In this document: piece after piece, positions 58,701-64,000 of the stretch | How positions within the stretch are numbered: position 1 is the stretch's first letter | Layout of the letters: every line of letters starts with the position of its first letter | Assembly: GCF_003019035.1 (NCBI RefSeq) | Contig: NZ_CP027448.1 | DNA length: 64,000 nucleotides | DNA from: Escherichia coli | GTDB taxonomy: Bacteria > Pseudomonadota > Gammaproteobacteria > Enterobacterales > Enterobacteriaceae | Reading direction: 5' to 3' (one strand) | Position numbers: made by a program

Positions 58701-61700
58701 ACCCGTGCCATCTACAATCCCCTGTATGACCTGATGTACCGCGCTGGCGTGCCGTTACGTAACATGCGTGTCTGTGAACCCTTTGGTCCGGAACAGCGCA
58801 AGGGACTATGGCTTTATCATGTTCTGGAGCCGGAAACGTGGGGCCGAATGTGTGAGAGGGTGTCCGGTGCTGCCAGCGGAGCACTTTATGCCAACGAAAG
58901 CGGTGCCTATTTTGCCCTGCGTAAACGTATATCAAAACCAGCCCATCATACCTGGCGCAGCTATGCGATGTTCCTGCTGGATGTGATGCCGGAAAGAACG
59001 GCAGAACATTACCGTAACAAGATAGCTATCTACCTGCGCTGGTATCAGACCCGGGGATTCCCGGATGACATCCCGGATGAACAGGAAAATGACCTGGGGG
59101 GCCGGGATATCCCGTCCTGGCGACGTATCTGTAAGACACTAATAAAGAATGATTTCTGGTGCCGGACCCTCTCCTTCAGTCCGAACAAACCCCGGCACTA
59201 CGAACGTTACCTGCAGCGTATGAAAGAAAGGAGAAAGGAATGGGGGATTCTGTGACACCGGAGGTGGAAGTATTGAGCAACATGATTCGTCAGTATTTCA
59301 GTCAAGTGCGAACTGATTCAGAAACCATACAGGCTCTGAATCATCTGCGCAGAGTGCTTCATGAGGTCAGTCCTTTTGCACAGGAGCCTGTGGACTGCGT
59401 ACTGTGGGTGAAAGCGGATGAGGTGGTGGCCAACGATTATAATCCTAATGTCATGGCGCCAGGTGAGAAGAAGTTACTCAAACAGTCTCTGGAGAAAGAC
59501 GGTTTCACACAACCAGTGGTTGTGTCGGAGGAGAAGAACCATTACCTCGTGGTGGATGGTTTTCATCGTCAGCTGCTGGGCAGGGAAGCAGACACAGGGA
59601 AACGCTTTAAGGGCTGGCTACCTGTAGCCTGTATTAATCCGGAGAGAAAGGGACAGGCATCACGTATTGCTGCGACCATTCGACATAACCGGGCCAGGGG
59701 GAAAAATCAGATAACCTCAATGTCTGATATTGTCAGAGACCTTTCGCGCCTGGGCTGGTCAGATGAACGAATTGGCACTGAGCTGGGTATGGACCGGGAT
59801 GAAGTGCTGAGACTGAAGCAGATTAGCGGGCTGATAGAATTGTTTCAGGAGGAGGATTTCAGCCCTGCGTGGACGGTCCGTTAAATAGCAGTTCAGCAAC
59901 GGCACCGGTCCAGCGACCCGGCGTGGCACGGCTCAGCTATTGCCTGTGCGTCGTTATAATCATTTTTCTGACGCCGCTGATAAGCTTTAACATGTTGTGC
60001 CGGAAGCAATATTACGTCATGGTCGAGTTTCCTGATTTCCCGGACCCAGTAATGGGATGCCCCGCAAGCCTCCATAGCAACAGTCATTTTAGGCTGTTGC
60101 ACCAGCCAGTTAAGCAGTTGATTGCGAGAAAGTTTGGCCTTTCCTGCGGGGTTGCCATGAGCATTGATACTGAAAAGATAAAAGTTCGTTTTAGCCAGCT
60201 CGATGCCGGTGATTTTCTGTTCAGACATGGTATCCCTCTTATTTTTGTGGTTAAAGTTTATCCTTCATGGCGCAATTGAAGGCTGCCGTGAAGGAGGGGG
60301 AAGACCATCTCATCGCTTACGCATCAGTACACGCTCAAAGCCCTCGATCACATTTTCGCGTCCTCCCGGCAAGCAATCAACTAAGCCACTGCCTTGCCCC
60401 CGGGAATGAAACCTAAGTAAGGTGCACTTTTTATGTCTATAGCAAAGCATTCTCCTGAGTTACGATTCAAGATCGGTAACAATTGCTCTGGTCCGCACAT
60501 CCCATATACAGCGAATGCCGATGCAAACAGCGCCCGTAACATTTTAGCAGCAGAGCACGCCATTCTTGCCTGTGGATGGTGCAATCAGGCCGCAGTTGAA
60601 GCAGGAATTCTCATTCTTCATGGCGTGAAGGAGGTCAAATGTATTATACAGCCCCCTTCAGGGGGCTGTATTTGTAAGCATTTTGTTGTCTGCAGTTACC
60701 TGTGCCAGGTAAACTGCGGATGGGGACGTTGTTCTGTATTCAAAAATAATGAAGGCAAACGAATAATATCACCATTGATATCGGCAATACCTCTGACATT
60801 TTGCAAAAAAAGAATTGTGTTATGTTTAACGTTGTTTTGCTGATAAATGCAAACCGAAAAAAACTTTCCTAACTCATCCAGTGACAAAACGTCATTATAT
60901 TTTATATTATGATGCTCTAATGGGATAAGCAAGAAGTCATTTTTATTTTTTCGCAATGAAATCCCTGTGTAATTTTCACTCAAAATTAACAAATTACCTT
61001 TTGTTACATAATGAAGCATACTATAATGCAAATAATTTATTTTTATATCTATATGTTCTTTTATACCGTTAAACTCTTTTTCTGCGCAAAATTCAGTTCT
61101 CCCCTTCGCGCACCAATAAAATAAGAAGCCGGTAACAGTAACAAACAAACTAACACTTAGTATGAAAAAATTACGCATTTTATTGATACTCACAAGAATA
61201 TTTATCACAGAATATACCCTCCCCCCCTTGCTCAAGGAATATTGCTGTCATCCCTTTTTCTGGCGGAGGGGTATTGAAATCGAAGTTAGAAAAAATATCA
61301 GTATCATTTATTTTTCTTGTCCTTATATCGCTTGCATTATATAAAAACAAAAAAACAGAAAAAACCATAAGTAACACATATATACCACATAAACAATATC
61401 GATATACAGGGATATAGATATTGTTTGAATGGGGGGCTTCCGTTTGTTTATCAACGGAAGCGGATAATTCATCTAATGACTCAGTGATCGTTATTTCAAT
61501 ATCAAGCAAAAAAGCATATCCTTCACCTTTATAAGTTTTTATCACTTCTTTTGATGATAGTTTTTTGAAAATATCTCTGATGTGTTTTATTGCAACAGGA
61601 AGCGATGATGCAGAAACCATTCTGCCCGGCCAGCAGTGACAAACCAGCTCATCATGAGAGATTATGGTTCCTTTATTTTTATAAAGGTATTCAATCAATA

Positions 61701-64000
61701 ACACCTCATTTTTCGACAACTGAAAGGAGGTTTTATTAAAAAAAATCAGGTTTTTCTTCTTGTCCAAGAGAATCATACGATTATTGAAAATTTCAACGGG
61801 GTTGACGTTCTGTGATATATAAGTGGAATAACACACTATGAAGCAATAAAATCAAGAATTTTAGTTGCCCGTTAAAAAACTTCAAGCCTGCAAGTAAAAA
61901 TTGCGGCGTTTATTTTAAATTCCAGAGTGTAACGTTTTTTTACCACACATCAAATTCATATATTATACTGTTATCCAGAGATTCTCTCCGGAGAGGAAGC
62001 CATGACAGTTGCGGCTTGTCATGGTCTGAAATTACCGTTATAAAAACGGTTCATATAACTGTCTTTCAGGGAGTTATATGGCCCGTTCAGCTAAACCGCG
62101 CAAACGCAAATCATCCATACAAAGAAGCAAACACCCACGCTATGTTGTAAAACTTCATGGAGATGAGTTTTTTGACGAAGAAGAAGCAGAGGTTCTGCGC
62201 TTTGAGCATTTTGATGATGCCGTGGAGTGCTGCGCAGACCTGAATATTCCGTTCTTTGTAGATGCCGGAAACAAAAAGCTGGTCTTCTGGTTTGTTCGTG
62301 TTGATGACGAAAGTTATCCAGAAATTGCCCGCTGCACGGAGCGGGAGTTTGCGACTATTCTTGCCGGTATCAGCCCGAAAGAATGTCGTGGCTGAAACAG
62401 AAGAAAGACACGGGGAGGGAAACAATCCTTTCACAGTGTTCATTCGCTTTTATATCCATCCAGTTTACTTGTTTTCTCGTGTATGCCACAGGCGCAATAC
62501 ATAGACAGTCTGGCCAGTAAGTTCATAACGGATTTCGTATTCACCTGCCAAAATCCGTCTGACCTTCCCGGGTTCAAAACTGAAATAACTGTTCCTCCAT
62601 GCGTGGATGAGTTAACAAAATGGCCGGAACCTGTATCAGGTGTCAACGCCACGATGTTTGACCGTTACCGTCTTATATCACTGGCGCTGACACAGGAACT
62701 GCACCGTTCTGGTGGTGGCAGGTAATGGTACATGCGCAGTAAGCACTTTTGTTGCTTGTGCTGTATTTTTTTTCATTTTTACATCCGATTAGTTGTTAAT
62801 CATAGTGATTATATTCAGACGAAACAGGGCAAATAATGCGCGTCAGCGCATGTAAGGCGGCATACGGTGGTTACATGTAGCACAGGTGTAAAACCGCCGA
62901 AGCCCGGCGTAAGCCGGTACTGATTGATAGATTTCACCTTACCCATCCCCAGCCCTGCCAGACTATACTCGCTTTCAGCCATGACAGAGCTTCTGTGCGC
63001 GGTCGGAGTGGTCCCGACAAGGGTTTACCCGCAGTCGGGGCGTATCTCCGCGTTAGCGGGCCGTTAGGGCCGCTTACGAGCGTGTACTTCAAATCTTCCA
63101 GCCAGAAGACTGGCAGCGATGATAATGTAGTTACAACATTCATAATTAAAAGCGACTCTGTTCCGGCCCTTTGGGCCGGGGCGGGGCCGCTTTTCAGTTA
63201 TGAGGGGGGGCTTTGTGGTTTCAGTTCTGCGCGGGACCGGGTTTTTTTGGTGGTTGTATCTGAGTGTTGTAACTAAAGTAGCTCCGGTCGGGGCCCGCCG
63301 CTTGCGGTGGGAGGTGCATATCTGTCTGTCCAAAGGACAGGCAATGAATAGGTTTTCTTTTTAAATGAATGTAGTTAAGTAGTTTAAAGGAGATATAAAT
63401 AGGTGTTTAAAAGATACATTGCACCCTGTAAGGCTGGCGGATGGCGCTTTATGACATGAACGGTTGTAACCTTATGAGGAAGTCCCTTGCAGTTAAATGT
63501 GGATAAGCAAAATTCCTCGTCTGTGAGGCGTGTTTTGTATCAAAAACAGGAGGGACCGGATGCACCTGAAGGTGGATGATGAGGTTGTTTTTTGTATGCG
63601 GTGCTGTTTTTTTGTTCGCCGACAGGCTTCAGGCGTGCAGATGCCTCCGGTGCGGGCCAGATTATTCTGAGGAGGTCACTTTCAGGGAGAAGCTGTGGCC
63701 AGCCGGCTGTAATTACGGTTACGTGACAGAATCATGCGCTCTTTCACACGACGCTCCACTTCGCGTTTTACCGCCTCACGATTGGCAGTGAAGCGCCCTT
63801 CCGAGATTTCACGCGTCAGCTGCCGTTTCACCAGGGTGACGATATCCTGACGTTCCCTGTTCGCATCACGACGCGCACGGGCACGCTTTATTCCACGGGA
63901 CTTAAGCTCTGTCTGGTAACTGCGGAAATGCTCACGCACAAAACGCCAGGCTTTCGCTATCAGTTCATCCATACCCAGGGTATCCAGTCCCTGCTTTTTG

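Follow-up and report, generated by a model that had tools for sequence, protein, structure and literature searches.

A PsaE/PsaF-type pair of transmembrane regulator genes and a candidate operator at a K88-like fimbrial operon on an Escherichia coli IncF virulence plasmid

The DNA analysed here, hereafter the window, is a stretch of 64,000 nucleotides of Escherichia coli contig NZ_CP027448.1 (NCBI RefSeq assembly GCF_003019035.1). It comes from a large IncF virulence plasmid found in cattle-associated E. coli, with an IncFII repA gene just past the window end, and two near-identical plasmids, p35A2a and p3RM8082, served as references. Two adjoining genes occupy the minus strand at 60696–61836, where a preliminary description made from the sequence alone had located them. 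The first is a psaE-like regulator gene (61180–61836), whose product combines a winged helix, one transmembrane helix and a periplasmic tail of 52 amino acids (aa) ending in C-x4-C, and the second a psaF-like partner gene (60696–61178), which encodes a 160-aa protein anchored in the membrane by its N-terminus, with a periplasmic beta-barrel of predicted ToxS/VtrC fold. As described before, the surrounding DNA is AT-rich, with a G+C fraction of 0.28–0.35 across 60750–61950 versus about 0.47–0.55 on both flanks. In our reading, the locus is probably a two-gene operon for a co-component transmembrane transcription regulator of the PsaE/PsaF type, which would control the K88-like fimbriae of the same plasmid.

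The regulator open reading frame (ORF) encodes the 218 aa first reported if it is counted from a GTG at 61836, whereas the ATG at 61776 (198 aa, MILLDKKKN...) appears to be the more likely start, because P0004, a homologue of 79% identity, is annotated from the same residues. The winged helix is unaffected by this choice. A profile search matched Pfam Trans_reg_C to residues 37–109 of the 218-aa form (E 3.8e-13; 49.7 bits, cut-off 26.2), in agreement with the N-terminal OmpR-type winged helix of the preliminary description. The single transmembrane helix and short periplasmic tail proposed there were likewise found, as one hydrophobic segment at aa 124–146 of the 198-aa numbering (Kyte-Doolittle 19-residue maximum 2.51) followed by the 52 residues of the tail. 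Nine out of nine aligned regulators share an invariant recognition-helix block (CWP..VS..SLPVAIK.IRD), F180 and the two cysteines C190 and C195. Among the NCBIfam models there is no family-specific one for this protein, and response-regulator models matched it only below threshold. The AT-rich region upstream of the gene (61837–62000, minus strand) contains one sigma-70-like match (TTGAAG, 16 nt, TAAAAT at 61885–61858), which is a candidate only, since promoter-like matches around the psaE-like gene did not exceed the number found in shuffled sequence.

In the case of the partner, the ORF as called mechanically extends over 60696–61235 (179 aa from a TTG), and translation probably begins at the ATG at 61178, giving the 160-aa product (MRNFF...). 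Its one N-terminal hydrophobic segment covers residues 4–22, and Pfam PsaF (PF17550) matches it with an E of 3.2e-17 and 63 bits (cut-off 25) over profile positions 10–149 of 162. NCBIfam offered no family-specific model here either, its FlaH/ArlH matches being spurious. Thirteen aligned partners share the invariant residues E41, H42, D44, H56, E68, G72, P86, Y112, F124 and R129. The AlphaFold model built from these 13 sequences, with a mean predicted local distance difference test score (pLDDT) of 73 and a predicted template-modelling score of 0.66, shows a helix at residues 2–24 and then 10 beta strands, which fits the membrane-anchored protein with a periplasmic domain that had been described from the downstream ORF. 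Foldseek placed VtrC chains at the top for two independent models of the partner (probability 0.94–1.0, with modest TM-scores of 0.35–0.48). On the other hand, a profile of the PsaF alignment retrieved nothing meaningful from the Protein Data Bank (PDB) sequences, and neither ToxS nor TcpH at E <= 10. The kinship to VtrC and ToxS is therefore visible by fold comparison only, as sequence profiles miss it, and the models depict the partner as a periplasmic beta-barrel of ToxS/VtrC fold behind an N-terminal anchor.

The ATG of the partner (61178) stands one base past the TAA of the regulator (61182–61180; junction TAAAATG). A 4-nt overlap of stop and start is found in Yersinia and in the plasmid loci that we number L004, L005, L014 and L015, and every other family member examined has two genes whose stop and start adjoin or overlap. 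On this sequence evidence, the psaE-like and psaF-like genes are separate and translationally coupled. Comparison with the nearest diverged allele, that of L009 (81.6% nucleotide identity), gave ratios of non-synonymous to synonymous substitution (dN/dS) of 0.15 (regulator) and 0.11 (partner) at a dS of 0.67, indicating that both genes are under purifying selection. These ratios, together with profile matches far above the cut-offs, argue that the locus is real and not a product of chance.

One feature of the pair invites a different view. A homopolymer run at 61221–61227 (minus strand; C7 on the plus strand, G7 on the coding strand) falls in regulator codons Q184–G186, within the periplasmic tail, and it has seven bases in the window and in p35A2a and six in p3RM8082. 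Owing to this loss of one nucleotide, the region of p3RM8082 is annotated as a single 333-aa ORF that fuses regulator and partner; its product would lack the conserved C190 and C195 and would presumably put the partner barrel on the wrong side of the membrane. The shorter tract could be a sequencing error, a decay mutation or a case of slipped-strand variation. This fused version, the mosaic of insertion sequence (IS) fragments (IS110, IS66 and IS100) and gene remnants that surrounds the locus, and the want of an obvious Shine-Dalgarno sequence before either candidate start of the regulator would all suit a decaying relic of an IS-ridden region, or a single frameshifted gene, with no current function. 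Such a relic is nevertheless very unlikely: both ORFs are intact and of full length relative to all homologues, all the invariant residues of the family are kept, selection on both genes is purifying, the two-gene layout is the family norm, and the intact C7 allele is common to the window and p35A2a. The single frameshifted gene, which the preliminary description had named as a case that would undo its own proposal, was rejected, given the two-gene layout throughout the family, the confinement of the fusion to p3RM8082 and the dN/dS values. The window allele of the pair thus appears intact.

Genuine PsaE and PsaF references were taken from the psaEFABC locus of a Yersinia pseudotuberculosis record (L006), which was found by tblastn of plasmid records. 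In BLASTP comparisons, the regulator aligns end to end with Yersinia PsaE (residues 2–198; 36% identity, E 1e-32), the identity reaching 56% by tblastn in the winged-helix region, and the partner aligns with Yersinia PsaF over residues 13–159 (31% identity, E 8e-22). A word-indexed homologue search yielded six to seven relatives per protein, and an exhaustive HMMER search was then used for the partner; with phmmer, 1.84 billion representative proteins contained 12 partner relatives at E <= 1e-3, Yersinia PsaF among them (P0016, E 2e-13), so the PsaF family seems to be very small. In RefSeq, this partner gene carries, on two near-identical plasmids, the product name PsaF/MyfF family fimbrial adhesin regulatory protein. 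With the partner family already named in NCBI annotation and mechanisms of this class well described, the pair does not represent a new kind of system.

The likeness to ToxR/ToxS and TcpP/TcpH put forward in the preliminary description holds for the architecture and not for the family. The regulator does match TcpP (2.3e-5) and ToxR (1.6e-4) by profile, through the generic winged helix alone, and these matches are weaker than those to ordinary response regulators such as SaeR (2e-7), ArlR and PhoB, from which it follows that the pair belongs with PsaE/PsaF (MyfE/MyfF) and resembles ToxRS and TcpPH in architecture only. An orthologue of the Vibrio pairs, gained by E. coli and acting as a global virulence regulator of autotransporters, including serine protease autotransporters of Enterobacteriaceae, and of katP, would share the same topology and the predicted ToxS/VtrC fold of the partner. 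Its ORFs would not, however, be expected to show homology to PsaE and PsaF over their full length, nor a partner that matches Pfam PsaF while no ToxS sequence is matched in the PDB. The claim of Vibrio orthology is already contradicted at the level of sequence families, and we regard it as extremely improbable.

The closest characterised systems are PsaE/PsaF of Y. pestis and Y. pseudotuberculosis, which govern the pH 6 antigen, and MyfE/MyfF of Y. enterocolitica, which govern the Myf fimbriae, both proteins of the window pair being homologous to theirs over the full length. The shared features include the domain order, the single transmembrane helices, the C-terminal C-x4-C of the regulator and the E-H-x-D and H56 motifs of the partner, whose invariant H42 and H56 correspond to PsaF H40 and H54. 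In both settings the two genes adjoin, are coupled and have a chaperone-usher fimbrial operon next to them, with repeats of the ATTAAT-N-TTAA type in the AT-rich region upstream of that operon. Regulator C190 and C195 correspond to PsaE C206 and C211, which are required for the stability of both proteins; in Y. pestis, changing either of these eliminates PsaE, PsaF and the expression of psaA (PMC8407435). The window pair differs in being plasmid-borne in E. coli, in its overall identity of just 31–36%, in the 1-nt spacing of stop and start versus the 4-nt overlap of Yersinia, in the fimbriae nearby, which are K88/F4-like with a PefC/AfrB-type usher and not Psa/Myf, and in having no known fourU-type leader.

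These fimbriae are encoded by an apparently intact chaperone-usher operon of seven genes at 49567–56707 on the plus strand, which we propose as the target of the pair. It gave 1215 bits with the NCBIfam PefC/AfrB usher equivalog and an E of 2e-57 for the chaperone, and RefSeq names its genes in the near-identical plasmids faeD/E/F/H/I. Three tandem 10-bp direct repeats (TTGGATAATg TTAAATAATc TTAAATAAT) are found at 49315–49343 on the plus strand, 224–252 bp upstream of the first fimbrial gene, and constitute a candidate site for the PsaE-like regulator; there are three copies of the 10-bp unit in the window and four in the near-identical p35A2a (L001 12922–12950). Nowhere else in the 64-kb window does the tandem pattern occur, the number of matches expected by chance being 0.18. 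Single half-sites are uninformative, as 48 of them occur in the window with <=1 mismatch, and no tandem repeat that would hint at autoregulation was found in a search upstream of the psaE-like gene. The K88-like operons of L003, L004, L005 and L009 have this repeat block conserved in their upstream regions though the flanks are unalignable, and it resembles the Y. pestis psaA region −333 to −292 (GATTAATCTTAACATTAT...), in which two motif matches are required for PsaE-dependent activation (bioRxiv 10.1101/782003). Moreover, among 72,556 plasmids the 336-bp promoter region is found only in the two with this psaEF allele, and the fimbrial structural genes are found at 89–94% identity in many plasmids. 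This confinement suggests that regulator and operator-bearing promoter travel as a module. The repeat is absent from the upstream regions of the autotransporters, which speaks further against a global regulator of the Vibrio kind. Where the preliminary description had wondered about fimbriae or autotransporters as targets, the neighbouring K88-like operon is thus most probably the one controlled, and the autotransporters are not favoured.

The genomic context of related pairs points the same way. Divergent psaEF-like pairs (30–85% identity) are present on about 20 Escherichia plasmids, and a K88/F4-like operon lies within a few kb of the pair in all six of the Escherichia arrangements examined (L003, L004, L005, L007, L008 and L009–L011), in varying orientation; the pairs of Yersinia and Edwardsiella likewise adjoin chaperone-usher operons. 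The allele of the window is rated rare, as two genomes among 5,426 complete ones of E. coli carry it, each on a plasmid. As a separate observation, an intact psaF-like ORF (MKKKLAILSTL...) follows an annotated winged-helix gene in L008 (NZ_CP134806.1, 12590–13060) and is missing from the PLSDB gene table, which implies that annotation-based counts of PsaF are too low.

The closest relatives, L009–L011, also provide an argument for another target. In these plasmids psaE and psaF are followed, after 62 bp, by a convergent class-5 (CS1/CFA-I-like) pilus operon read from chaperone through CS1 pilin and usher to cfaE, beyond which the K88-like operon diverges from it. The window retains pieces of this arrangement: a cfaE-like 3′ fragment (46743–47279, plus strand); beside it a remnant of a second psaF allele, of the P0009 type (47340–47453, minus strand), comprising its last ~110 nt, cut by IS110 at 47454 and translating to NVRGVADINGDIIRLPSLF; and a remnant of a class-5 usher (48936–49230). 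The second psaF remnant shows 96% nucleotide identity to the L009 type (L009 10393–11006), and the cfaE fragment, the usher remnant and the second psaF are, by their sequences, remains of the older layout that is intact in L009–L011. In addition, a hairpin at 60651–60674, with an 11-bp G+C-rich stem and 22–45 nt past the stop of the psaF-like gene, has a minimum free energy of −24 kcal/mol (z −4.3) and is terminator-like on the plus strand; the spacer that contains it is also conserved in L009, between the convergent psaF and cfaE, so that the hairpin is probably a terminator once common to the psaF-like gene and a convergent cfaE-like gene. A functional pair could then have had as its native target a class-5 operon destroyed here by IS activity, and would now be orphaned or act on other AT-rich promoters, an idea to which the 218 AT-rich sites bound genome-wide by PsaE in Y. 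pestis (bioRxiv 10.1101/782003) lend some substance. This explanation is nonetheless unlikely, since the five other divergent pairs (L003, L004, L005, L007 and L008) have no adjoining class-5 operon and all have a K88-like one, the class-5 and K88-like operons of L009 diverge from a common intergenic region in which the repeats lie nearer the K88-like side, and the repeat-bearing promoter co-occurs with this psaEF allele.

The preferred reading, a PsaE/PsaF-type pair acting on the K88-like operon, can be laid out as a sequence of steps, of which the periplasmic ones are modelled on Yersinia PsaEF and, more loosely, on ToxRS, TcpPH and VtrAC. In Yersinia, PsaE without PsaF is degraded by DegP, Tsp and intramembrane proteolysis, and PsaF stabilises it by way of the periplasmic tail and its disulfide (PMC6657601, PMC8407435). 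Similarly, the partner barrel would bind the disulfide-bonded tail of the regulator in the periplasm and protect the regulator against DegP/Tsp and intramembrane proteolysis; regulator levels would therefore follow an envelope signal read by the partner. A candidate signal is mildly acidic pH, which could be perceived through histidines of the partner, of which there are eight in its periplasmic domain; given the ToxS/VtrC fold, a small-molecule cue such as a bile salt, as in VtrC and ToxS, is equally conceivable. The stabilised regulator would then bind the three 10-bp repeats at 49315–49343, as the conserved gene context and the cis-element suggest. Finally, the bound regulator would activate the AT-rich promoter of the operon at 49567–56707, probably against silencing by H-NS.

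Several points weigh against this reading. Binding, signal and target of the pair are all things that we infer. In L009–L011 it is a class-5 operon that psaEF directly adjoins, and that operon, of which the window has only remnants, could be the original target. The AATAAT hexamers of the repeats also score as a −10 box (TTGAAA, 17 nt, AATAAT), and the repeats may simply be the promoter core. The IS110-mediated inversion described below leaves psaEF 11.4 kb from the repeats, versus about 2.2 kb in the reference plasmids. With respect to the signal, PsaF needs five histidines to be stable at pH 6.3, and the window partner has a histidine at the aligned position for only two of them, H54 and H155, H87 being replaced by E (with histidines at +1 and +2), H141 by R and H153 by a gap; with two of the five aligned, pH sensing by this partner is not assured. 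In a linker-fused model of tail and partner, the tail reached a pLDDT of 69–85, but just one of five models attained a mean of 67 (49–54 in the others), and this modelling, which came with no interface metrics, was not used as evidence of docking.

The altered distance between pair and operon stems from two copies of an IS110-family sequence. A 397-bp 5′ fragment of this family (59924–60320, minus strand) adjoins the psaF-like side and is an inverted copy of 47454–47850, as seen by blastn against L001 and L002; Pfam DEDD_Tnp_IS110 matches 47546–48220. The 12.5-kb segment between the copies (47851–59923) runs the opposite way in the window compared with both reference plasmids, and its cargo consists of the K88-like operon, virK and ibrA/ibrB. 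The latter genes, at 57413–59884, are virK/ybjX-like, ibrA-like (3′-phosphoadenosine 5′-phosphosulfate reductase family) and ibrB-like (ParB-like), follow directly after the fimbrial operon and have been inverted along with it; IbrA and IbrB are reported activators of eib adhesin genes. The resulting convergent layout of the window resembles those of L004, L005 and L008, whereas in the reference plasmids the relative strands of the fae operon, the cfaE fragment and psaEF are as in L009, in a different order. Between the IS110 end and the spacer of the psaF terminator, 314 bp (60321–60634) contain no intact ORF and show no similarity to the cfaE of L009; part of them is labelled a partial hypothetical protein in RefSeq. 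Elsewhere the window carries a 968-aa ORF with no Pfam match (101–3007), a katP-type catalase-peroxidase (7867–10080), an AIDA-like autotransporter with a TibC-like heptosyltransferase (20892–25609), an S6-family serine protease autotransporter (35339–39238) and a MASE4-GGDEF diguanylate cyclase (42505–43887).

Comparison with other systems helps to situate the pair. VtrA/VtrC of Vibrio parahaemolyticus and ToxR/ToxS of Vibrio spp. have no detectable sequence similarity to the window partner, the periplasmic tail of the window regulator is much shorter than theirs, and their known ligands (bile salts) and regulons (type III secretion system 2 and ompU/toxT) are unrelated to fimbrial operons. 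TcpP/TcpH of Vibrio cholerae has the same topology and controls a pilus-related virulence cascade; there, stability depends on a pair of periplasmic cysteines, and the regulator is guarded by its partner against regulated proteolysis (PMC8407435). In this case the similarity is limited to the winged-helix profile match, and no test applied here placed the window partner among TcpH relatives. Fimbrial operons of the K88-like class have regulators of their own, FaeA/FaeB of F4 and KlfB/KlfL with Lrp in the Klf fimbriae of Salmonella Infantis, but FaeA/FaeB and KlfB/KlfL are cytoplasmic proteins of the PapB/PapI type or other soluble regulators, and none is a membrane-bound winged helix with a periplasmic partner. 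In Klf, regulatory genes of distinct G+C content have been grafted onto a conserved structural cluster (PMC5560535), and the window resembles it in that regulatory genes of different G+C content are joined to a structural fimbrial cluster.

The literature search, whose coverage left out most papers of subscription journals, found no paper tying the PsaE/MyfE/MyfF family to E. coli K88-like fimbriae, and no study of an E. coli PsaEF-type pair, of the candidate operator or of a structural link of PsaF to ToxS/VtrC. K88-like clusters have, as their known regulators, soluble proteins of the PapB/PapI type or KlfB/KlfL (PMC5560535), and the characterised membrane-bound transcription regulators listed for E. 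coli are only CadC, GrvA and YqeI/YqeJ (PMC10269533). A broader and quite speculative idea, which we think has only a small chance of being right, is that the psaEF-like genes and the repeat-bearing promoter form a portable cassette, which on repeated occasions has been joined to K88-like (and class-5) operons on IncF plasmids of Escherichia. Such a cassette would place plasmid adhesins of E. coli of the ruminant and Shiga toxin-producing (STEC) types under a periplasmic sensor of ToxS/VtrC fold that responds to a gut cue (for instance bile salts or mild acidity). Heritable variation, in level or between on and off, would in addition arise from the copy number of the repeats (3 or 4), the G7 frameshift tract and the 12.5-kb inversion bracketed by IS110.

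No current view is overturned by the finding. If it is correct, the PsaEF-type pair, with its link to K88-like fimbriae, would join CadC, GrvA and YqeI/YqeJ as the fourth regulator of this kind in E. coli. The predicted sharing of the ToxS/VtrC fold by PsaF would tie the Yersinia system structurally to the bile sensors of Vibrio. The analysis yields a defined candidate operator (49315–49343) and a defined sensor domain, and with them, if the reading holds, a concrete and testable account of how plasmid adhesins would be switched on in the gut by cattle-associated and STEC-type E. coli.

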